DNA of 64,000 bases from Bdellovibrionales bacterium. Lineage in GTDB: Bacteria > Bdellovibrionota > Bdellovibrionia > Bdellovibrionales > UBA1609. The DNA lies in contig JAYUKW010000001.1 of the NCBI GenBank assembly GCA_043764155.1, forward strand, positions 118,027-182,026, written 5' to 3'. Under the pieces are notes generated by a model, which worked only from the letters and a program-made list of their open reading frames with translations, did not search any database and was not told the origin of the DNA. The position numbers and the translations under genes were made by a program. This document shows positions 2,195-50,038 of this stretch, in pieces (the stretch's first letter is position 1; every line of letters begins with the position of its first letter).

Positions 2195-3190
2195 ATGTTA
2201 AATTTAATTAAATTTCGAATCCTATTTATTCTGTTACTAAATTCCTCTTCTGCGCTTGCAACTAGTCTTGATACTAATCAATTAACAAGTGTAGAAAAAT
2301 GTAGTCATATTCTCACTTTGTATCCTGATGCCATTGAAAGTTTTGATGTTCAGAGCAACACATTAGTTTTTAAAAATGGACATCGTAGTTTTTGTGATGA
2401 TGGACAGGTTTACAATTTAATTCAAAATTTAGATTATCAAAAACAAATGTCCCAAGTCGATTTAAGCGATATTCTTTTACAAGCTTATCCAGATCATTAC
2501 ATGGCTCCAATAACAGAAAAGAATTACTCTCCAGGCCGATTTCGTCACGATCAACTTTTAATAAATACATATTTAAATATAAACGCCCTTTCTAAAACAG
2601 ATCTTCTAAAATCGGCCAAAGATGATCTTACAATTGACGATGTAAAAATCCTAGCTCGCTACTTACAAATGGAAATCGTAAAAGTTAAATTTCTTGGTTT
2701 TGATATTAACATGAATCAAAGAAATGGGGCTGCTGAAGCCCTTGCACGAGTAGGGCGGCGGTTAGAAAAAGATTTTCCCCAGGGGGCTAAATGGCTTATT
2801 TCAAATCGAAATATGTCTGGGGGATTTAACATGCGATTTATCAGCGGAACTAAAAGACTATCTTCTCATTCATGGGGGATTGCGGTCGATTTCACATTAA
2901 AAAATGCGACTCCAAATTTAAAATGGTTTGATTCCTACTGGAAGTGGATTGCCGTATGTGCACCAAACTTAAAATGTTCACCAGCAAGAACTGACGAAGG
3001 GGCCAAATATCGAAGAGATTTAAGTGAAGAACTTTTAGATGTTCAGATCTATCCCCTAAACTTCGACCACTTCCCCCCAGAAATTGTTCAAGTCTTTGCC
3101 GACGAAGGTTACATCTGGGGCGGTCACTGGCACCACTTTGATACAATGCACTTCGAGTACCGTCCCGAATTCTTCACCCATCAAAAATAG
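2195..3190 (+). CDS. secreted M15-family (LAS-type) zinc peptidase, probable peptidoglycan peptidase
   Basis: 331 aa; signal peptide; SSHSWGIAVDF and GGHWHHFDTMHFEY metal-ligand motifs; last codons and stop lie inside the palindrome arm. Confidence 0.7.
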   Translation: MLNLIKFRILFILLLNSSSALATSLDTNQLTSVEKCSHILTLYPDAIESFDVQSNTLVFKNGHRSFCDDGQVYNLIQNLDYQKQMSQVDLSDILLQAYPDHYMAPITEKNYSPGRFRHDQLLINTYLNINALSKTDLLKSAKDDLTIDDVKILARYLQMEIVKVKFLGFDINMNQRNGAAEALARVGRRLEKDFPQGAKWLISNRNMSGGFNMRFISGTKRLSSHSWGIAVDFTLKNATPNLKWFDSYWKWIAVCAPNLKCSPARTDEGAKYRRDLSEELLDVQIYPLNFDHFPPEIVQVFADEGYIWGGHWHHFDTMHFEYRPEFFTHQK

Positions 3191-3642
3191 TCCTACACTT
3201 ACTAATTCTTAAAAAAACTTATTTAAAGTCTATTTTGATTATAAATATAATTTTCATCATAGAATTTAAAATAGGCTCGTTGGCGTGAAGCCTTGCTCGA
3301 AATCTATTCTGGTTTTTATATAAATTTAAAGATCATTGGGACATTTAAAACAGGGCAGACCTTGTCATTCGCTTTGCAGATTAATTTTGTTCTCTAGACA
3401 TTGCTTAACAAACTATAATGGTTGTTTTAACTTATCCAGCAGAGCAAAGCTTCACGCCAACGAGCCTATTTTAAATGTCCTAATGATCTTTAAATTTATA
3501 TAAAAACCAGAATAGATTTCGAATGCAAGGCGAATGACAAGGTCTGTCCTATTTTAAATTCTATGATGAAAATTATATTTATAATCAAAATAGACTTTAA
3601 ATAAGTTTTTTTAAGAATTAGTAAGTGTAGGACTATTTTTGA
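3181..3642. repeat. nested quasi-palindrome E1 (modules A-B-C-D-loop-B'-C'-D'-A')
   Basis: Outer arms 3181-3275 vs 3548-3642 are exact reverse complements (95/95). Inner arms 3301-3354 vs 3465-3518 match 52/54. Cassette B ctcgttggcgtgaagc is at 3276-3291, rc copy at 3449-3464. Cassette D gcagaccttgtcattcgc is at 3355-3372, rc copy at 3530-3547 (17/18). Apical segment is 3380-3442. Confidence 0.95.
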
Positions 3643-4427
3643 CAGGTGGGGCAGAAGTAGCTGGATCGGTTGGACTGGGTGATTTTTTTAATTGTTGTTT
3701 GGCAGATATTGCATTTGGAATTTTCTTGGCCATAGACTTGCCAATGATTTTGCATATCGCCTTGTTCGCCGGCAACGTTTTTATAATCTCGAAGTGAGCT
3801 TCCACCTTTTTTAATGGCTTCATTTAACACATTCTTGGTTTCTGTAATGATATTAATCCAATCATTAAATTTTAATTTCGATGTTATTTTTGTGGGTTTG
3901 ATTTTTGTTTTAAAAAGAATTTCAGAGGCATAAATGTTACCTACGCCTAAAATATTTTTTTGATTTAAAATCCATGATTTTATTGGTGTGTTTGATTTTT
4001 TTGCTTTTGAATAAAAATCATTTGAATCAAGCTGGTCATGAATGGGATCGGGGCCAAAATTTTTAAATGTATTCTGATCAAATTTTAAAATATATCCAAA
4101 ACGTCTAGGATCATTGTAAATTAAATTTATATTACTCCATTCAATTACAACATGATCGTGTTTTATTGGTGCGTAAGTAGCTTCATATCGCCAGTGACCA
4201 GTCATACCTAAGTGTGAAATAAAATGATGAGTATTAGTTTTTAAAATTAAAAATTTACCACGACGATCAACAGATAAAATACTTTTATTTTTCAAGTCCT
4301 TTAATTCTCTTAAAGGTAGTGGGAAGCGCAAATCTTTTCTTAGGAGCTTAATTTCTTTGATTGCCTCTTTGGGCAACTGGTTTTGAATACCTAGTTTTAT
4401 AATTTCGACTTCAGGGAGTTCTGGCAT
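3633..4427 (-). CDS. mutM: formamidopyrimidine-DNA glycosylase
   Basis: 264 aa; MPELPEVE N-terminus; C-terminal zinc finger CNICQ...FCPTCQK; stop codon lies inside the E1 arm. Confidence 0.9.
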   Translation of the reverse strand: MPELPEVEIIKLGIQNQLPKEAIKEIKLLRKDLRFPLPLRELKDLKNKSILSVDRRGKFLILKTNTHHFISHLGMTGHWRYEATYAPIKHDHVVIEWSNINLIYNDPRRFGYILKFDQNTFKNFGPDPIHDQLDSNDFYSKAKKSNTPIKSWILNQKNILGVGNIYASEILFKTKIKPTKITSKLKFNDWINIITETKNVLNEAIKKGGSSLRDYKNVAGEQGDMQNHWQVYGQENSKCNICQTTIKKITQSNRSSYFCPTCQK

Positions 4428-4644: not shown

Positions 4645-6360
4645 ATGTTTCATTCTTTAAATAAATACTTACGTTTTATTATTATTAATATACCTATCCT
4701 GGGACTTATATTTTTATTTCAGAATGCAATAAATGTGACCTCTGATGGAGCTATAATTCAAATGGCAATCTATCAAGATCTTTATCCAAAAAGTTTTTCT
4801 TTATTCCCAGGACAATCATCCGCCGTCGTTTTAAATCCAAAGGCGTTATTAGCTATTCATGAAAGTATGGAGTTGGGGGCAAATTCAGTATGTATCGGTG
4901 TTAACTGTAGTTTGGCGTCAACTCCTGTTAGTGCCTGTGTGCAATATAATTTTGAAACTTTTGCATCTGTAAATTCACCGGCCTTGGTAGTGCGTTATGC
5001 CCATGTTCCACAAGTAGGGGTTGCACATTGTGCAGGAACATATTGTGGATCTTCTCCAGGTTTAGTTTTATTCGGTCGGGATAATATAAATCAAAGCTGG
5101 TTACGCCTAGGTTATGCAGAACTTAATGGTGAGATCAATAAAACAAGCATAAGTGAATCCAAAATTTTAGAATTAAATAAAATCTACACACAGGTGGCTT
5201 TATGTAGAGCTGGCGGAGGATCAAGTCGAGATCATTTAAAAATAAGCAGTCTTGTGCAAAGATATGTTCAAAAAAGCACTAATTCGGCCCCTGATAAAAA
5301 TCAATGTGTGGCTCAGGTTCCTTCCAGCGTAGATAGCCTACGTTGGAAAATTCTTTCTGATTTTACACCTAAGTATAAAAATCTTATTTTAAATATTGCC
5401 ACTTATCCATTTAATAGCATGGCCTATCAGTGTTTATACAAATTAAATGCAGCTCAAAAACTAAATTTGGGTTGTGAAATAAATGAAGCTGAAAGAATTG
5501 GAAAATCCTTAATAGAACAAAGTGATTTAGACGGTGATGGAAAAATGGGTTGGGGGATTAGGTCTAATCTTGAAAATGAAAAGTGTGGTCTCGGTGGTTA
5601 TGATGCTTTAAATGATGGGACCTGTAATCCACCAAATACAGCCTATATGTTTCAAACAGGTTTAGTTTTGGATTGCTTAGGAAAGCTTTACGAAGTCACA
5701 GGAAATCCGGATTATTTAAAAGCTGTAAAAAAGGGTATAGCTGATTCTATGAATTTTGGATCTAGTCAATTGGGTGCTTGTGAAGACTGCTTTGAGTACA
5801 GTTATTCGTATTCGCCAAATGAAGTGGGTCGCTTTGTTCGCAATACTAGTTTAGAAATGGCTGTGCCACTGGCTTTTTTATATAAACATACAGGTGCACT
5901 AAAATATCGTGACCGACTTTTTCAAGTGTTAAAATCAGAACAGTTTAATTACACCAATGGAAACAAAGGCTACTTAAGTATTTATGATCCTAAATACAGC
6001 AGCTCCGAAAAATGGCGAAATGAAGACCATATGCCCTCACACATTAGATATTTAAGTCGCGTTTCAAGTGAGTTAAAAATAAATAACTTAAATCTGCTAA
6101 GTGATAATTTGCAAAAAGATTGGCGTTTTTGTTCAGGCAATCCTTGGTGTGCTAAGCAAAGAACCCAACAAGACCCAACAAATCCATATCAAAGTGGTGA
6201 TATTGATGTGTTTACAAACACATACACCACTTTAAGTTGTTCAGCTTATGGAATGTCTGCACAGCTTAGAAATGACTGTATTCATGAAATGAATGATTTT
6301 TATTTGCAAAAGAAAACGCCGACATCAGATATGCTAACTTTTATTCTTGAAAGCTTGTAA
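4645..6360 (+). CDS. hypothetical secreted protein (possible alpha/alpha-toroid fold)
   Basis: 571 aa; N-terminal hydrophobic signal/anchor; GGAG RBS; Cys-rich; helical-repeat-like segment QTGLVLDCLGKLYEVTGNPDYLKAVKKG; no family recognised with certainty. Confidence 0.5.
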   Translation: MFHSLNKYLRFIIINIPILGLIFLFQNAINVTSDGAIIQMAIYQDLYPKSFSLFPGQSSAVVLNPKALLAIHESMELGANSVCIGVNCSLASTPVSACVQYNFETFASVNSPALVVRYAHVPQVGVAHCAGTYCGSSPGLVLFGRDNINQSWLRLGYAELNGEINKTSISESKILELNKIYTQVALCRAGGGSSRDHLKISSLVQRYVQKSTNSAPDKNQCVAQVPSSVDSLRWKILSDFTPKYKNLILNIATYPFNSMAYQCLYKLNAAQKLNLGCEINEAERIGKSLIEQSDLDGDGKMGWGIRSNLENEKCGLGGYDALNDGTCNPPNTAYMFQTGLVLDCLGKLYEVTGNPDYLKAVKKGIADSMNFGSSQLGACEDCFEYSYSYSPNEVGRFVRNTSLEMAVPLAFLYKHTGALKYRDRLFQVLKSEQFNYTNGNKGYLSIYDPKYSSSEKWRNEDHMPSHIRYLSRVSSELKINNLNLLSDNLQKDWRFCSGNPWCAKQRTQQDPTNPYQSGDIDVFTNTYTTLSCSAYGMSAQLRNDCIHEMNDFYLQKKTPTSDMLTFILESL

Positions 6361-25088: not shown

Positions 25089-25100
25089 ATTGACGAACCT

Positions 25101-25467
25101 GTAAGTTTCTCTTTAAGCCGGATTCTGTAACTTTAAAAATCGTCACAATTTTTAAAATCTAACCATCATTCCTCTAGGATTAAAGTTACCTTTAACCTCA
25201 AGCAATCTACCCGAAAACTGGTGCGAGCCGCACTCATAGCGTTTCCCTATTTGACCTTGCTTCGCGCAGAGTTTTGCTGTTTTCACTCCAACAGCTCCCC
25301 GAAGATCTCCCGTTCCCGATCTAAGGATCATAGCCTTGGACATTCTCTCTGTTCCACTGTTCCTCATCTTACGATGGAGGGGCGTTACCCCATGCGCTGC
25401 TCTACGAAGTCCGGACTTTCCTCCAAAATGGTTTAACCCATTTCAGCGATGGTCTTTCAAAACTTAC
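25101..25467 (-). ncRNA. rnpB: RNase P RNA (bacterial type A-like)
   Basis: The - strand contains GGAGGAAAGUCCGGAC (CR-I/P4 5'), GGUAACGCC, CAGUGGAACAGAGAG, GCAAGGUCAAAUAGGG, GGGUAGAUUGCUUGAG, CCUAGAGGAAUGA and ACAGAAUCCGGCUUA (P4 3'). P1 pairs GUAAGUUU with AAACUUAC; P2 pairs GACCAUC with GAUGGUU. Confidence 0.93.
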
Positions 25468-31114: not shown

Positions 31115-31390
31115 ATGAAACTATCTCAAAATCAAATTCAAAGATTAGTACAGCACCTTTTTACTGAAATAAAAAGTTCACCAGCGGTAGAGTTTAAGGT
31201 CGACGATGCCGTGATTAAATCTAAAATTTTAGCGGTGATTCAAAATAATATTGAAGAAGAAAGTAAAATTGATCAGCTTGTTGATGGCATGATGGATCAG
31301 CTTGAACGACAAAATGCGGACTTTCAAAGATACAAAATGTTTCCACTCTTAAAAAAGAAGCTGGCAGAACAAAGAGGATTTATTTTATGA
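31115..31390 (+). CDS. DUF507-family small protein
   Basis: 91 aa; paralogous to the next ORF; 4-nt overlap. Confidence 0.55.
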   Translation: MKLSQNQIQRLVQHLFTEIKSSPAVEFKVDDAVIKSKILAVIQNNIEEESKIDQLVDGMMDQLERQNADFQRYKMFPLLKKKLAEQRGFIL

Positions 31391-31659
31391 TTTCTGAAAA
31401 TAGAGCTTCTCATTTAAGTCATTTAATTTTTGAAAAATTATGGAATGATGATGTTGTTGAATACTCTGATGAAGGTGCGGCCCTAAAAGATTATAAACGT
31501 GGTTTAGATAAGTTTTTAAAAGAACACACGGATGTCGATAAAAAAGCAAAAAGCATGATTTCGTCGCAAAGCCGAAGTATTCTTGAAGGAACGGCTGAGT
31601 GGGAGACTCTTTATAAAAAATATTACGAAACTGAACTTAAAAGAAAGGGTATAGATTAA
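31387..31659 (+). CDS. DUF507-family small protein
   Basis: 90 aa; EGTAEWETLYKKYYETELKRKG, as I recall for DUF507. Confidence 0.6.
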   Translation: MISENRASHLSHLIFEKLWNDDVVEYSDEGAALKDYKRGLDKFLKEHTDVDKKAKSMISSQSRSILEGTAEWETLYKKYYETELKRKGID

Positions 31660-33137: not shown

Positions 33138-33239
33138 CTGTCTAGTTCACTCGTTGGCTTTATGGGCGGCATCGTTCAGTCCGCTTCGCTGGGACTTCCG
33201 TTCGCACGCCCAGCCAACTCGCTGGAACTTTTCTTTATT
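33138..33239 (+). repeat. GC-rich structured module G1
   Basis: Has 5' ctgtctagttcactc and 3' tcgctggaacttttc, identical (15/15 each) to the flanks of the module in the E2 apical loop. Internal stem: gttggct..gggcg / cgccc..agccaac. Confidence 0.85.
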
Positions 33240-33368
33240 GTCTAGTTCACTCACACCCACACGTCGAACTTCGTTCGAATAACGTGGGGCTCGTTGGAAC
33301 CCGCAGAGAGACTTCGTCTCTCGTTTGCGAGCCTAGGCTCGCTCCGGCGGGGAACTTTTCTTTTTATT
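33240..33368 (+). repeat. GC-rich structured module G2 (tandem to G1)
   Basis: Starts gtctagttcactc and ends ggaacttttc. Contains hairpins cgaac-ttc-gttcg, gagagac-ttc-gtctctc and gcgagc-ctag-gctcgc. Abuts the stop codon of the convergent gene. Confidence 0.8.
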
Positions 33369-38969: not shown

Positions 38970-39060
38970 TTAAAACCCCTCGATTCTAATATTTTTCGGC
39001 GTTAAAACTTATTGTCTTAACTGGACTTTGGAAGAGCAGTTGAGATATTCTGTCTATATT

Positions 39061-39654
39061 ATGAAATGGATTGGTTTAACAGGATGTATGGGGTGTGGAA
39101 AATCCACAGTAGCCCAAATTTTAAGGCAAGATCATGATCTTGAAGTCATTTCAGCTGACGATGTGGCACTAGAAATTTTAAAAACGGACCAAGAGCTTCA
39201 GGACTACATATCTAAAAATTTAAATGTTGGCTTTGATCCCGACTTTAGTTTGTATCGATCAAAGATCTCGGCCAAAGTTTTTGGCAATCCAGAGGCCTTA
39301 AAAAAATATGAACAGATTTTTCATCCTAAGGTGAAACAATATGTAGCAGGACTTAAAGAAAAGCTTTCAAAAAATCAAGATCTTGCTTTTTATGATATTC
39401 CTCTCTTGTTTGAAAAAAACATGCAATCAGATTTTAGTGCCATTATCGGTGTCTTTGCTGATCATGATGTGCAAATGGCTCGACTTAAAGAGCGAAACCA
39501 ATGGACAGATGATCAAATTGCAGAACGCTTAAAACATCAGATTCCAAATAAAACCAAAATCGACCAATGTGATTTTATTATTTTTAACAACTCATCCTTA
39601 GATAGTTTGAAAACTCAAATCATCGACATCCTGGCTAAACTCGTCAGTCATTAA
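39061..39654 (+). CDS. coaE: dephospho-CoA kinase
   Basis: GLTGCMGCGKST P-loop right after the ATG at 39061 (the track ORF begins at a TTG at 39028); last 15 nt and stop lie inside the E2 arm. Confidence 0.85.
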   Translation: MKWIGLTGCMGCGKSTVAQILRQDHDLEVISADDVALEILKTDQELQDYISKNLNVGFDPDFSLYRSKISAKVFGNPEALKKYEQIFHPKVKQYVAGLKEKLSKNQDLAFYDIPLLFEKNMQSDFSAIIGVFADHDVQMARLKERNQWTDDQIAERLKHQIPNKTKIDQCDFIIFNNSSLDSLKTQIIDILAKLVSH

Positions 39655-40074
39655 AATCTCATTTACATAATATTTAATTTTTATATTTTAAAGAGATCTT
39701 CACAATTTAAAACAGGCTCGTTGGCATGAGGCCTTGCTCGAAATTCATTCTACATTCTATTTAAATTCAAAGATCCTTAGGACATTTAAAACAGGGCAGA
39801 CCTTGGCATTCGCTTTGCACAAGTTGGAAAAGTTCCAGCGAACTGGCGAGGGTGCGTAGCCCCTCGAAAGCCAGTGAGTGAACTAGACAGTAGCAAAGCT
39901 TCACGCCAACGAGCCTGTTTTAAATGTCCTAAGGATCTTTGAATTTAAATAGAATGTAGAATGAATTTCTAATGCAAGGCGAATGACAAGGTCTGCCCTG
40001 TTTTAAATTGTGAAGATCTCTTTAAAATATAAAAATTAAATATTATGTAAATGAGATTTTAATGGCTGACGAGT
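39639..40074. repeat. nested quasi-palindrome E2 (same architecture as E1)
   Basis: Outer arms 39639-39716 vs 39997-40074 match 77/78. Inner arms 39741-39795 vs 39914-39968 match 55/55. B is at 39717-39732, rc copy at 39898-39913. D is at 39796-39813, rc copy at 39979-39996. The apical segment 39821-39891 is a G module in - orientation. Confidence 0.95.
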
Positions 40075-40103: not shown

Positions 40104-40850
40104 TTACCAGGGTAAAATGGTGTGGTCGTAGTTTAAGAATTGGCCTTGGTTTTCAGGTTTTAAGTTTTCAATGACGTTAAAAATATTTTCTGCAGACTCT
40201 TTTGGTGTATGAATTTTATATTTTTTTTCAGCTGCTTTCATAAAGGGTTCTGACAGACGAGTTTGAGTGGTACCTGGATGAATTGTGACAACATACTTTT
40301 CTGTGCCTAAACGTTTAAATTCTAAGCTTAAATTTTTAATAAACATATTTAAAGCAGTTTTTGAAGCGCGGTACGAATACCAGCCCCCAAGAGAGTTGTC
40401 AGAAAGACTGGCCACCTTTGCAGATATTGCGGCAAACACGGCGTAGTGTTTATGTTTAAAGAACTCTTTTAAATACTTGGCAAAAAGCATTGTGGGAATA
40501 CTATTCACCAAAAAACTTTTTTTCATATTCTCAAGGCTAACCTCTTCGACTCGTCGTTCAGCAACTAAGCCTTCGATTTGTAAAGCGCCAATACAATTAA
40601 TAAATCGGTGAATTTCAGTTATACTTAATTCATGAAGCGTTGATTTCATATTCGAGAAGCCGTCTTCGTTTTCGATATCTAATAAAAACCATATTAAACG
40701 AGTTTGATATTTTGTTTGTAGTTCTTCCATTAGATTTGTGATTGTGCTTCGGTAAGTACCAATCACAATGTTTTCAGAATTTGCTTCTAAATAGGTTTGG
40801 CATAAACTAAGGCCTAACCCTTGACTTGCTCCGGCAATAACAATGTTCAT
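40104..40850 (-). CDS. short-chain dehydrogenase/reductase (CsgA/C-factor-like)
   Basis: 248 aa; IAGASQGLGLSL, YRASKTAL. Confidence 0.8.
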   Translation of the reverse strand: MNIVIAGASQGLGLSLCQTYLEANSENIVIGTYRSTITNLMEELQTKYQTRLIWFLLDIENEDGFSNMKSTLHELSITEIHRFINCIGALQIEGLVAERRVEEVSLENMKKSFLVNSIPTMLFAKYLKEFFKHKHYAVFAAISAKVASLSDNSLGGWYSYRASKTALNMFIKNLSLEFKRLGTEKYVVTIHPGTTQTRLSEPFMKAAEKKYKIHTPKESAENIFNVIENLKPENQGQFLNYDHTILPW

Positions 40851-47030: not shown

Positions 47031-47906
47031 ATGGTATCTGAAATTTTTAATCCCGAGTTGTGGACTACTGTAGAAGGTTTTAGTTTTTCAGATATCACTT
47101 ATCATCAGGCTAAAAATCAAGGAACAGTTCGAATTGCATTTAACCGCCCTGAGGTTCGAAATGCGTTTCGTCCGCAAACGGTGGATGAGCTTTACACCGC
47201 TTTAGATCACGCTAGACAAAATCCGAGAGTTGGAACTGTAATTTTAACTGGAAATGGGCCTTCCCCAAAAGACGCCGGATGGGCTTTTTGCTCCGGCGGG
47301 GATCAGCGGGTCCGCGGTGAATCTGGCTACCAGTACGATCCCTTATCTAAGGCCGGTCGTCTTCATATTTTAGAAGTGCAGCGCCTTATTCGCTTTATGC
47401 CAAAAGTTGTTGTGTGTGTTGTCCCTGGATGGGCTGTGGGGGGTGGGCATTCACTTCATGTTGTGTGTGACTTAACTTTGGCGAGCGTTGAGCATGCCGT
47501 CTTTAAGCAAACCGATGCTGACGTTGCTAGTTTTGACGGGGGATACGGCTCCGCATATTTAGCTAAAATGGTAGGACAAAAGAAAGCTCGCGAAATTTTC
47601 TTTTTAGGAAAAAGTTATAGCGCACAACAAGCGCTAGAAATGGGAATGGTGAACGCCGTTTTTAATCATAATGAATTAGAATCAGAAGCTTTAAAATGGT
47701 GTGCAGAGATCAATTCAAAAAGTCCAACTTCGATCCGAATGTTGAAGTATGCATTTAACTTAGCCGATGATGGAATGGTGGGGCAGCAACTTTTTGCAGG
47801 CGAAGCCACACGTTTGGCTTATGGAACAGAAGAGGCCAAAGAAGGACGGGATGCGTTCTTAGAAAAACGAGATCAAGATTTTTCTGAATTTCCATATCAT
47901 TTTTAA
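47031..47906 (+). CDS. menB: 1,4-dihydroxy-2-naphthoyl-CoA synthase
   Basis: 291 aa; crotonase fold; FCSGGDQRVRG; C-terminal DFSEFPYHF typical of MenB. Confidence 0.85.
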   Translation: MVSEIFNPELWTTVEGFSFSDITYHQAKNQGTVRIAFNRPEVRNAFRPQTVDELYTALDHARQNPRVGTVILTGNGPSPKDAGWAFCSGGDQRVRGESGYQYDPLSKAGRLHILEVQRLIRFMPKVVVCVVPGWAVGGGHSLHVVCDLTLASVEHAVFKQTDADVASFDGGYGSAYLAKMVGQKKAREIFFLGKSYSAQQALEMGMVNAVFNHNELESEALKWCAEINSKSPTSIRMLKYAFNLADDGMVGQQLFAGEATRLAYGTEEAKEGRDAFLEKRDQDFSEFPYHF

Positions 47907-48009
47907 AAACCCTCTGACCCTTTTTTCTGTCCAATCTGCGTCAAAAATTCATATATATTGGAATAATTTTTGACGCAGTTTGGACAGAAAAAAGGGTCAG
48001 AGGGTTTTT
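47905..48009. terminator. 45-bp-stem hairpin between convergent menB and the hotdog gene (bidirectional terminator candidate)
   Basis: 47905-47949 pairs with 47965-48009 with a single mismatch (47935/47979); 15-nt loop. The left arm starts within the menB stop codon. The right arm covers the last codons and stop of the convergent gene. Confidence 0.7.
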
Positions 48010-48479
48010 ATGCCGCGTTTTTTTAAAGATAAAGTCAGTTCAAAAGTCATGATATGGTCGTTTAAGTTAGAAACTTCGAAGGCTTTTCCACGAATAATTT
48101 TTTCTTCTCTTTCGCCAGAAAGTAAAGCTTTTGAGATCAGATCTTCAACATCTTTAGTTTGTTCGCAAATAAAATGAACATCACCTTCTGCTCGTTTTAA
48201 GAAGTCAGCTTTAAAATCTTTAAATAAAAAATTGATAGGCTTCTTTTTTAAAAAAACCAATTCCACAGCTTTAAGCGCACACGTCAACTCTGCGCCCACA
48301 GTCAAAGCCCCAAAGTACATAGCCCCTAAATGGTTTTTAGTTCTACGTTTAAGTTTAATTTCAACTACAGATCTTTTTTCACTAAGCTCTAAAACTCGTG
48401 GTCTCATAAATGCAATAATTGGAATCTTAAAAAAAGTTAACAAATAAATCATAAAACTTAATTTCGTTTCTGCTTTCAT
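47997..48479 (-). CDS. hotdog-fold thioesterase-like protein (DUF4442/YiiD_C-like)
   Basis: 160 aa from the ATG at 48479 (GGAG RBS). The track ORF extension to 48545 runs through an inverted repeat. Family assignment is by weak recollection only. Confidence 0.45.
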   Translation of the reverse strand: MKAETKLSFMIYLLTFFKIPIIAFMRPRVLELSEKRSVVEIKLKRRTKNHLGAMYFGALTVGAELTCALKAVELVFLKKKPINFLFKDFKADFLKRAEGDVHFICEQTKDVEDLISKALLSGEREEKIIRGKAFEVSNLNDHIMTFELTLSLKKRGIKTL

Positions 48480-48489
48480 ATTTACTCCA

Positions 48490-48606
48490 AAAAGTGCCAG
48501 GTTCCGTTTGCGAATTAATGTTGTTATTATCGATTTGGTATTCAATTTAAATGCATTTCAAACCATAACAAATGCGTTTAATCCACAAACGGAACCTGGC
48601 ACTTTT
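48490..48606. repeat. 21-bp perfect inverted repeat flanking a 75-bp spacer
   Basis: aaaagtgccaggttccgtttg (48490-48510) pairs with caaacggaacctggcactttt (48586-48606). The right arm abuts and overlaps the POT stop codon. Confidence 0.85.
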
Positions 48607-50038
48607 AGGTGGGTTCGGCGAGGTTGTGATCTTGTAGGAATGTTTTTTCTTTGTAGAAGTAGGCGATGATCATAAAGATGATTCCGGCCCAAAAGACCAT
48701 AGCGGTGAAAAACCAAAAGTAGTTCGCGCCGGCGAGGATATTAAAACCAAGGGCTTTGTCTTTGGCCACAAGACCATTGACGTTGGCCGTGACGATATTT
48801 CCTAAAGATATTGAAAACATAAATAAGGCCATAACAAACGACTTCATGCTGTTTGGTGCCTGAGTGTAAGAAAATTCTAAAGCTGTGATTGAAATTAATA
48901 TTTCAGCCGCAGTGATCAATACAAAAGCTAGAACCTGCCAAAGCATAGATGGTGTTGCACCGTTTTGAATCCACTGCTCTGTTATAGCGATAACAGCAAA
49001 TGAAGCTGCTGTTAGAAAAAAGCCAACACTGATTTTTCTAAGTGGAGTTACTTTTACCCTGCGTTCAAAGAAAGGATAAATAATTAAAGTAAAAAGTGGA
49101 ATATAAAGTAAAACTAAAACCGGATTTACTGCTTGAACTTGCGCAGGCAAAATAGTGAAGCTAGCAAAACCTAAATTCACAATACGATCAAGCTTGTCAG
49201 CTTGTAACACCCATGATGAGCCCGTCTGGTCGTAGAGGGCCCAGAATACAGCGATCACTAAATAGATAAGACCGAGTTTTAAAAGAGCAAAAATTCCGTC
49301 TCTGCTTTTTAGATCTTTTAAAAATGTAGCTCCGTCAGCAGGCATAGCTATGAACTCGTGGCGACCCATATAAAATATGACGGTCGCTACGAACATTAAA
49401 ATCCCAGGAATACCAAAGGCGACAGATGGACCATAAATCTCTAACATCCAAGGAATGATTAATATTGAGAAAAATGATCCAAAGTTAATAGACATATAAA
49501 AGTAACTAAACACTTTATCTATTAAATGTTTTTTACTAGCGTCGAACTGATCGCCAACATGCGCAGACACACAGGGCTTGATCCCACCAGAACCAATAGC
49601 GATAAGTCCCAATCCTACAGCAAGTAAAGTTTTGGGTTCAGCAAGAGTTAAAATAAACGGAACTTCCATTAAGGCTAAAACCAGATGTCCAACACAATAA
49701 ACCAGAGACAATCCAATAATCGTTTTATATTTCCCTAAAAATAAATCAGCCAGCAAAGCGCCAAATAGTGGAAAAAAATAAACTGCAGCAACAAAATAAT
49801 GATACCATTCAGAGGCTTCAGAACCGGTAAAAAAAGCATCCTTACCTTGGCTATCTAAAATAAACTTAGTCATAAAAATCATCAGAATAGCTTTCATTCC
49901 ATAAAAACTAAATCTCTCAGCAGCTTCATTCCCGATGATATAAAAAACCCCTTTAGGCATTTTATCTTTTGATGCACTAGTCATTTGATTTTGAGACTGG
50001 TTCGGCGTTTTATTATTGGTGCTACTAATTGAACTCAT
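48605..50038 (-). CDS. POT-family proton-dependent oligopeptide transporter
   Basis: 477 aa; GNEAAERFSFYGM (ExxERFxYYG-type) signature; about 12-14 TM. Confidence 0.85.
   Translation of the reverse strand: MSSISSTNNKTPNQSQNQMTSASKDKMPKGVFYIIGNEAAERFSFYGMKAILMIFMTKFILDSQGKDAFFTGSEASEWYHYFVAAVYFFPLFGALLADLFLGKYKTIIGLSLVYCVGHLVLALMEVPFILTLAEPKTLLAVGLGLIAIGSGGIKPCVSAHVGDQFDASKKHLIDKVFSYFYMSINFGSFFSILIIPWMLEIYGPSVAFGIPGILMFVATVIFYMGRHEFIAMPADGATFLKDLKSRDGIFALLKLGLIYLVIAVFWALYDQTGSSWVLQADKLDRIVNLGFASFTILPAQVQAVNPVLVLLYIPLFTLIIYPFFERRVKVTPLRKISVGFFLTAASFAVIAITEQWIQNGATPSMLWQVLAFVLITAAEILISITALEFSYTQAPNSMKSFVMALFMFSISLGNIVTANVNGLVAKDKALGFNILAGANYFWFFTAMVFWAGIIFMIIAYFYKEKTFLQDHNLAEPT

Follow-up and report, generated by a model that had tools for sequence, protein, structure and literature searches.

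Nested inverted repeats that enter gene ends in a Bdellovibrionales bacterium: a REP/REPIN-like family whose arms probably spread by template switching

How do two convergent genes come to end in the same string of nucleotides, each on its own strand, and which of the two endings is the original one? This question is raised by a 64,000-nt stretch of DNA from a Bdellovibrionales bacterium (hereafter the window; G+C content approximately 34%), which is part of a 235-kb contig of the ENA metagenome assembly ERZ27314334. Two long inverted repeats lie between convergent genes in this stretch. The first, E1 (3175-3648), separates a Peptidase_M15_4 gene (2195..3190, +) from fpg (3633..4427, -), and the second, E2 (39639-40074), separates coaE (39028..39654, +) from a short-chain dehydrogenase (SDR) gene (40104..40850, -). 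The answer that we favor is that E1 and E2 are probably copies of a REP/REPIN-like selfish or structural element, the arms of which were homogenized and extended into the flanking genes by DNA template switching.

For comparison, we used the nearest named relative, the metagenome-assembled genome (MAG) JANODG01 (GCA_031412575.1, labelled Bdellovibrionales bacterium), the orthologues of which share 66-83% identity with the window proteins. Eight copies of the element were compared, namely E1, E2 and the MAG loci L002, L003, L004, L005, L006 and L010, together with sites of relatives that do not carry it: L015 and L022 at the peptidase/fpg junction, and L018 and L021 at other orthologous sites, which are empty or differently occupied. 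C-terminal residues are given below up to the stop codon.

The outer arms of E1 (3175-3275 and 3548-3648) are 101 nt long each and 98% complementary. The earlier note on this DNA had pointed to the identical gene-end string TCAAAAATAG at 3181-3190 and, in mirror image, at 3633-3642, with both genes terminating in tCAAAAATAG. This identity was confirmed, and the match in fact reaches 3175 and 3648 (16 nt), with two mismatches (CA vs TG) at the zinc-finger cysteine codon of fpg. The peptidase open reading frame (ORF) of the window ends in FFTHQK and the fpg ORF in CPTCQK. In E2, the outer arms (39639-39716 and 39997-40074) are 78 nt long each and 99% complementary. The left arm begins inside coaE, as had been noticed; by our measurement, the stop codon and the 13 nt before it belong to the arm (actcgtcagtcattaa). 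The mirror copy at 40059-40074 departs from the coaE end in one T/C difference (agt/agc), again as described before.

A survey of convergent gene pairs had been proposed along with these observations. Within the window, 3 of the 12 convergent junctions carry long inverted repeats that enter gene ends: E1, E2 and a third hairpin between menB and a DUF4442 gene. The remaining junctions have gaps of -4 to approximately 60 nt or other repeats inside. The long inverted repeats at the three junctions are far beyond chance. As the window comes from a metagenome assembly, a fold-back chimera, or else a chance similarity, might be suspected. However, E1 and E2 are internal to the 235-kb contig, the same proteins are found on independent contigs of up to 519 kb, and the separately assembled MAG has six copies, one of them at the orthologous junction. 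The folding z-scores of both elements are approximately -29 relative to shuffled controls. We regard an artefact or chance origin as extremely improbable.

Which of the two ends is native was judged from orthologous C-termini. Seven close orthologues of the peptidase (50-70% identity) end in EYRPEFF, with or without one further Y or N. The extension THQK occurs in the window peptidase only, and its start coincides with the start of the arm. By contrast, Fpg ends in CQK not only in the window but also in the MAG (CPHCQK), two element-free relatives (CSKCQK and CPKCQK) and E. coli (PDB 1k82, last residue), the last of these having been named correctly beforehand as a native C-terminus. An empty site, which had also been asked after, exists in L015, where in the same gene order the peptidase ends in PEFFN and is followed by 32 nt and then the fpg stop. 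In L022, the gap is 95 nt long and holds only a different small repeat. Because of these orthologue C-termini and the empty site in L015, we take the fpg end to be native and the THQK tail of the peptidase to be its mirror image. The terminal codons on the two sides of the L015 site differ from each other, which speaks against the chance identity that the earlier note had allowed for, while its suggestion that a gene C-terminus had been rewritten is borne out for the peptidase. For E2, CoaE ends in (V/I/T)SH in most of the approximately 12 closest orthologues, including two sites without the element, and the copy at 40059-40074 is hence the derived one.

The same junction in the MAG (L010) gives a second example. 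Here, the mirror of the fpg end (4967-4984 vs 5310-5324) starts directly after the peptidase stop. One extra A makes this TGA stop (tac tga cca aaa atc vs cac tgc caa aaa taa), so that the mirror is non-coding in the MAG and coding in the window. As a side observation at this locus, a 571-aa ORF adjoining fpg in the window (4645-6360, +) has no Pfam match and is missing from the otherwise syntenic MAG locus, where a TrmB-like gene directly follows fpg. Two mirrored spurious ORFs to which the palindrome gives rise (3611-3823, -, and 3084-3212, +) share the C-terminus NSPTLTNS and represent a trap for gene callers.

Beyond their ends, E1 and E2 are not simple palindromes, as two conserved blocks, X and Y, are swapped between the halves. 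Both elements have the order A-X-B-Y-L-X'-B'-Y'-A', where A and B are arms and L is the loop, with X being CTCGTTGGCGTGAAGCCTTGC and Y GCAGACCTTGTCATTCGCYTTGC. The two blocks are homologous and represent variants of a single site of approximately 23 nt, the consensus of which reads GG, CTCG (X) or CGAAGCC/GCAGACC (Y), TTGKCAY, GAA (X) or TC (Y), and GCYTTGC. If a single strand is folded back, a long rod results in which each X lies opposite a Y', forming two 7-bp helices, a conserved asymmetric bulge of 4x7 nt and an internal loop of small size. X and Y' together thus resemble an imperfect REP-like hairpin, the loop of which is the long AT-rich B/B' stem, tipped in turn by the reversed unit Y-L-X'. 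Crossing helices (X with X', Y with Y') were ruled out as a register, as GCCTTGC is shared by outer X and outer Y and GCTTTGC by inner X and inner Y, and these pair perfectly only in the rod. In L005, both outer sites carry GCCGTGC.

Read from the peptidase side, E1 starts with the mirror of the fpg 3' end (3175..3190, +), which in the peptidase frame encodes the tail (F)THQK and the stop TAG, where orthologues stop at PEFF(Y/N). A copy-specific part of the outer left arm follows (3191..3224), which resembles neither the other copies nor the B module. The AT-rich B-like module next to it (3225..3275) aligns to E1 B with z=5 and terminates in the 12-mer ATTTAAAATAGG. Motif matches define the outer X site (CTCGTTGGCGTGAAGCCTTGC, 3276..3296, +) and the inner Y site (GCAGACCTTGTCATTCGCTTTGC, 3355..3377, +), between which lies the inner arm B (3297..3354), 58 nt long and 97% complementary to 3465-3522. 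The central loop (3378..3443) is unique sequence, and no second copy of it was found. On the return side, the inner X' site (3444..3464, -; motif match), the inner arm B' (3465..3522, by complementarity to B) and the outer Y' site (3523..3547, -), which lies opposite the outer X in the fold-back, lead to the right arm (3548..3632). This arm again consists of a B-like module and a copy-specific part, assigned by complementarity and by the B alignment, and it closes with the native fpg 3' end (3633..3648, -; codons TCQK plus stop), the CQK of which is conserved in orthologues.

E2 is built likewise. The native coaE 3' end (39639..39654, +; LVSH plus stop, most close orthologues ending in (V/I/T)SH) opens the left arm, the remainder of which (39655..39716) is a B-like module that aligns to E2 B with z=5.1 and terminates in ATTTAAAACAGG. 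The outer X site (39717..39737, +), the inner Y site (39796..39818, +), the inner X' site (39893..39913, -) and the outer Y' site (39970..39996, -) are all motif matches. The inner arm B (39738..39795) is 100% complementary to 39914-39969, and B' (39914..39969) and the right arm (39997..40058) were assigned by complementarity. The non-coding mirror of the coaE end (40059..40074) meets the flank on the SDR side, where the two overlap by 5 nt (ACTCG/CGAGT) and a small hairpin is present (cgagtggttggccactcg). The central loop (39819..39892) is nearly filled (39826-39890) by an unrelated small repeat with the ends GGAAAAGTTCCAGCGA and GAGTGAACTAGACAG. This repeat belongs to a small family of its own, in which the two conserved ends flank a variable G+C-rich hairpin and which is also found at 33138-33360 (-) of the window and at 3198-3417 of L002; it stands in tandem at one convergent junction and once within the E2 central loop.

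X, Y and the ATTTAAAAYAGG motif occur four to eight times each in the window, exclusively in E1 and E2 (expected 0-0.06). A scan of 185,579 species-representative genomes with the X motif returned five loci, all of them in MAG JANODG01, and the sixth MAG copy (L010) lies at the orthologous peptidase/fpg junction. The X motif gave only three chance matches in the JGI metagenomes, on contigs of 60-65% G+C with no partner site, and no match in IMG/VR. A BLASTN search of plasmids and phages with the E2 core was likewise negative, and approximately 45 kb of sequence from other relatives held no X/Y copy. The family is so far restricted to one lineage, namely this organism and one related Bdellovibrionales MAG, with two copies in 64 kb of the former and at least six in the fragmented latter.

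The order of parts is common to all eight copies. In the five two-level MAG copies, the core measures 223-225 nt, B 44-47 nt as aligned and L approximately 33 nt. L003 (7268-7741) has three levels, A1-Y-A2-X-(plain 29-bp hairpin)-Y'-A2'-X'-A1', and its outer palindrome extends approximately 42 nt at 71% identity into the C-terminal coding region of a flanking gene. At least one gene 3' end adjoins every copy; five copies are flanked by convergent genes and two by co-directional ones, L006 having just one flanking gene on its contig. The neighbors are housekeeping genes (nuoG/I, recO, gdh, dnaB). Among the 37 neighboring proteins scanned against Pfam, in the window and beside the MAG copies, there was no transposase and no RAYT gene.

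A multi-copy, palindromic, non-coding and intergenic element might suggest a classical MITE (miniature inverted-repeat transposable element), which derives from an insertion sequence by deletion, shows conserved terminal inverted repeats and is bordered by direct target-site duplications. However, the outer arm ends of the eight copies have no significant similarity, which agrees with the earlier note for E1 and E2, and it is the inner blocks that are conserved. Each of the eight copies has a locus-specific inverted repeat on its flanks and none has direct repeats there, and nothing related was found in the viral, plasmid and phage collections. With neither conserved termini nor direct target duplications in the copies, a classical MITE, which the note had named as a possible refutation, is very improbable.

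The inverted flanks lead back to the original question, as the outermost 16 nt of E1 and of E2 are an inverted copy of a native gene end. To this extent, the earlier proposal that the arms grew outward by inverted duplication of local flank stands. It does not hold for most of each arm, since the inner 50-60 nt of the window outer arms align to the B module (z ~5) as a diverged copy of the inner arm, within a multi-copy family with conserved internal sites, and only the outer 16-50 nt are locus-specific. The candidate explanation that the outer arm consists of captured local DNA over its full length was dropped on this alignment.

How regular the local part is bears on a second explanation. 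A folded single strand might integrate, and the integration itself or a snap-back repair would then create the inverted target duplication in one step, as a new type of scar. This would agree with the locus-specific inverted repeats around all eight copies, with the strand bias described below, which fits a single-stranded intermediate, and with the length of the mirrored gene segment, which upstream of the stop is 13 nt in E1 and E2, similar in L010 (with a 1-nt indel), 14 nt in L005 and 16 nt in L006. However, measured from the module boundary, the locus-specific mirrored part spans approximately 7 to 60 nt across the copies and has no fixed length. A fixed 16-nt integration footprint was rejected as a rule on this spread, L002, L003 and L004 being different. 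In addition, the same overlap with gene ends is seen in a hairpin that has no X/Y sites, no enzyme candidate was found among the neighboring proteins scanned, and we know of no transposition chemistry that produces long inverted target duplications. An integration footprint is accordingly a quite unlikely origin of the mirrored ends.

The hairpin without X/Y sites is the third one of the window. Its arms (47904-47949 and 47965-48010) are 98% complementary around a 15-nt loop and measure 46 nt, not 45 nt as first noted. Its placing over the two gene ends was right: the left arm (47904..47949) starts with the menB stop TAA, and in the right arm (47965..48010) lie the stop of the convergent DUF4442 gene and its last 11 coding nucleotides, with the codons (I)KTL. 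The X and Y sites are absent and the sequence is unique. DUF4442 orthologues end in KKRG(K) and the window protein in RGIKTL. The MAG flank of the DUF4442 gene, ggcaaataaaccc, is similar to the window sequence ggcataaaaaccc. On these alignments, the DUF4442 tail seems to have arisen when a stop was lost and translation ran on into an arm that would have originated on the DUF4442 side, with the mirror starting precisely at the menB stop. In the MAG, L019 (3150-3181) holds a mirror of the last nine menB codons plus the stop (FSKFPYHF) on the DUF4442 strand, approximately 180 nt downstream of DUF4442, and the contig terminates 32 nt beyond this mirror, which suggests that this junction has a further palindrome mirroring a gene end, and that it broke the assembly. 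Nearby, a second and separate repeat family was observed, an inverted doublet of AAAAG(G)TGCCAGGTTCC that forms a REPIN-like hairpin. It is found at 48487-48609 of the window and in L018 (3595-3723), L019 (2252-2494), L021 (3100-3240) and L022 (3243-3262), i.e., in the window and at least three relatives, including coaE/SDR and peptidase/fpg junctions without an X/Y element.

A unique 46-bp palindrome that already lies over two gene ends without X/Y sites suggests a reversed order of events, in which locus-specific palindromes, e.g., terminator hairpins over stop codons, came first and the X/Y element then inserted into their single-stranded apex. On this view, the inverted repeats on either side would be left over from an old hairpin stem and not made by the element. 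The nesting, too, is always apical: the inner unit sits centrally in the outer one, an unrelated repeat sits in the E2 loop, and L003 stacks three levels around a plain hairpin. However, no hairpin involving the gene ends is present at the empty or differently occupied orthologous sites L015, L022, L018 and L021, and the window outer arm is mostly B-like element module and not local DNA. The origin of the local palindromes would itself call for template switching. We therefore consider such apex targeting rather unlikely.

A further question is how the arms stay paired. Within copies, arm complementarity is 93-100%. Across copies, the B arms can be aligned, with z up to 17, and the outer arms cannot (z at most approximately 3.8, the shared orientation being no better than the reversed one). 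Between the window genome and the MAG, whose proteins are only 62-70% identical, the X and Y sites are far better conserved than the AT-rich arms, in which hardly any recognizable similarity is left. E1 B and E2 B differ at 10 of 56 sites, and 9 of these 10 differences are mirrored in both arms, with 2 and 0 arm-to-arm mismatches, respectively. For the five MAG copies that supplied the covariation set, the 90 consensus pairs are 95.9% paired, and both sides have changed in 43 of them, compared to 19.3±2.8 in shuffled data and to 6-10 when the partners were slid by 1-3 columns. Within the 44-pair B helix, 33 pairs are doubly changed, none is changed on one side only, and a single cell is G·U.

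Such a pattern could be read as a selected structured RNA, in which the rod would act in a 3' untranslated region or as an antisense RNA (bidirectional terminator, mRNA stabilizer, or platform for RNase III or a protein), with its pairing kept by selection and X/Y' as conserved internal loops. The gene 3' end beside every copy fits this idea, and so do internal loops that are conserved while the helices covary. The mismatches are also biased: on the strand reading A-X-B-Y-L-X'-B'-Y'-A', the arms contain 19 G·T but 5 A·C mismatches (p=0.007). Finally, the MAG loops have a wobble-rich apical stem of seven pairs (alignment A5 columns 102-125, e.g., L002 2356-2379; 12 G·T in 35 cells) with a semi-conserved loop, GTGGAGCACGA; the window copies have unrelated loops and lack this stem. 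However, the long helices show essentially no wobble intermediates, and selection on each single pair would be negligible in a rod of more than 100 bp. Rfam returned no match for the E1/E2 family at gathering or permissive thresholds, only sub-threshold hits of hairpin type. Promoter-like and terminator-like signals in E1 and E2 do not exceed those of shuffled controls, and no intrinsic terminator (short G+C-rich stem plus T run) was predicted at either whole palindrome, with one weak match within E1 Y and none in E2. The orientation relative to the flanking genes is inconsistent (E1 vs L010; L003), the mirrored gene ends are left unexplained, and the data named in favor are compatible with homogenization at the DNA level as well. 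Selection for a structured RNA is in our view improbable as the main cause.

The G·T excess and the wobble-rich apical stem hint that one folded single strand, be it RNA or single-stranded DNA (ssDNA), is the form that matters, and the asymmetry between X and Y' is kept in 16 of 16 site pairs. Together, asymmetry and excess suggest that recognition by a putative factor, or selection, acts on the folded single strand (ssDNA or RNA). Taken further, the X/Y elements might form a new class of strand-specific hairpin element that propagates into hairpin apexes, including its own, and whose bulged, heterotypic X/Y' pair in the folded strand would be recognized by a putative enzyme or RNA-binding factor. 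To this proposal we assign a low likelihood, similar to that of apex targeting. Were it true, integration or maintenance of the element would yield inverted instead of direct target duplications and routinely rewrite the 3' ends of housekeeping genes.

We return to the reading favored at the outset, a REP/REPIN-like element under DNA-level arm homogenization. Because selection on single pairs seems too weak to keep more than 100 bp paired, we infer that the arms are homogenized at the level of DNA, and template switching is the mechanism that best fits the sequences. Template switching between the arms of inverted repeats is known to homogenize and expand them, and to make perfect stems in one step or keep them (PMC13100816; PMC8794818). 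One arm would template the other, either by template switching during replication (snap-back) or by gene conversion within the palindrome. In the same manner, a short piece of one flank, from a few nucleotides up to some tens, would be copied, inverted, to the other side, which would carry the palindrome into the 3' ends of fpg, coaE and other genes. Where such a mirror meets the opposite gene, it can become coding, as in the change from PEFF to PEFF-THQK in the peptidase, and its reach seems to be limited by what the opposite gene tolerates. Arm templating of this kind would account both for inverted flank copies and for mirrors that halt where the opposite gene would be damaged; the observed mirrors halt at the menB stop and, in window and MAG alike, after PEFF. 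Candidate microhomology at the putative switch points consists of ACTCG (5 nt) plus the flank hairpin at the right junction of E2 and of C/ACC at the left junction of E1, as read from present-day sequences only.

Several points weigh against this reading. A transposase was not found near any copy. The arm identity in L003, L004 and L010 declines toward the outer edge (71-89% vs 94-98% inside), the opposite of what recent or steady outward growth would lead one to expect; erosion of an older, longer palindrome may be the source. Efficient homogenization should also erase the difference between X and Y', and its persistence needs an extra assumption: the sites must be under selection or shielded from conversion. 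The reach of 13-16 nt in five copies is tighter than would be expected of a purely random process. Finally, E1 and L010 occupy the same junction, and each is closer to the copies of its own genome and tracks its own fpg, so that copies must also insert repeatedly or convert one another. In the protein tree drawn on for their orthology, the branching is star-like (62-70% identity), and their arms cannot be aligned.

The locus offers a clean natural case, polarized by orthologues and an empty site, in which stop-proximal codons were copied to the opposite strand and a neighboring gene gained a new C-terminus. If the favored reading holds, it would also represent a bacterial repeat family under such strong arm homogenization that the helices turn over wholly yet stay paired, a pattern which covariation tests would misread as selection on RNA. 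The survival of 16 of 16 X/Y' pairs in this background marks the sites as the functional part and provides a handle for finding the recognizing factor. REP/REPIN-like elements would be extended to uncultured Bdellovibrionales, with a nested architecture that is undescribed for the known families. With regards to annotation, mirrored pseudo-ORFs and lineage-specific protein tails of this kind should not be over-interpreted.

Two further observations in the window concern none of these elements. The Rfam search identified a bacterial RNase P RNA of class A (25098-25466, -; 207 bits) in a 412-nt gap of the ORF map. The overlapping ORFs 31115-31390 (91 aa) and 31387-31659 (90 aa) match the first and the second half of Pfam DUF507, respectively, and are either a split gene or a two-gene arrangement.

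Among known systems, the closest kind is the REP/REPIN group, with its tens to hundreds of copies per genome and a cognate single-copy RAYT gene (Y1 transposase) that the repeats flank. REPINs are inverted doublets of a short conserved site with a less conserved, hairpin-forming spacer in which compensatory changes are common (PMC3116915), and REP units in opposite orientation fold into larger structures, with a tag, GTAG or CGTC, left unpaired at the stem base (PMC3733652). The E1/E2 family shares the inverted doublets (X...Y' and Y...X'), a covarying spacer (43 of 90 pairs) and a position outside genes, for the most part on their downstream side, with convergent or co-directional ORFs around it. 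However, the doublet partners are systematically different variants in the X/Y elements, and two or three levels of doublets, alternating in orientation, are nested inside one another, whereas REP doublets stand side by side. The stems are AT-rich arms of 47-101 nt and not a short spacer, the unpaired ends are CTCG (X) and GGCTTCG (Y') in place of a GTAG/CGTC tag, no RAYT was seen among the 37 neighboring proteins, and locus-specific extensions of the arms enter coding sequence.

The last of these features is the one shared with template-switch (quasipalindrome) mutation. In the described cases, one arm templates the other so that multi-base 'compensatory' changes arise in one step, and arms expand into their flanks and can alter coding sequence (PMC13100816; PMC8794818; PMC8604942). 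The footprint here is alike, with the fpg end mirrored to the peptidase side, the coaE end mirrored into intergenic DNA, and the native states given by orthologues. The described cases mostly concern short arms of 5-50 bp at single loci, whereas E1 and E2 belong to a repeat family with more than 150 bp of total pairing, and two conserved asymmetric sites per arm are spared in the X/Y elements.

The bacterial interspersed mosaic elements (BIMEs) of enterobacteria are mosaics of the palindromic unit types Y and Z, each of which is self-palindromic, in alternating head-to-head and tail-to-tail order. Like these, the X/Y elements combine two site variants in fixed extragenic mosaics at gene 3' ends, and asymmetry gives each unit an orientation. 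Unlike in BIMEs, the sites follow the order X+, Y+, X-, Y-, are not self-palindromic, and each is paired over a distance with a site of the other type. A conserved full-length consensus marks the palindromic elements of Rickettsia and the Correia elements of Neisseria, the latter also having terminal inverted repeats and a TA duplication. These, too, are palindromic repeats in or abutting coding sequence that alter protein termini or transcript ends, but the coding change there comes from the element's own sequence, while in the X/Y case it mirrors the neighboring gene. REP-like repeats and the expansion of inverted repeats by template switching are thus both already known; what is unusual is a case polarized by orthologues, and the architecture in which it occurs.

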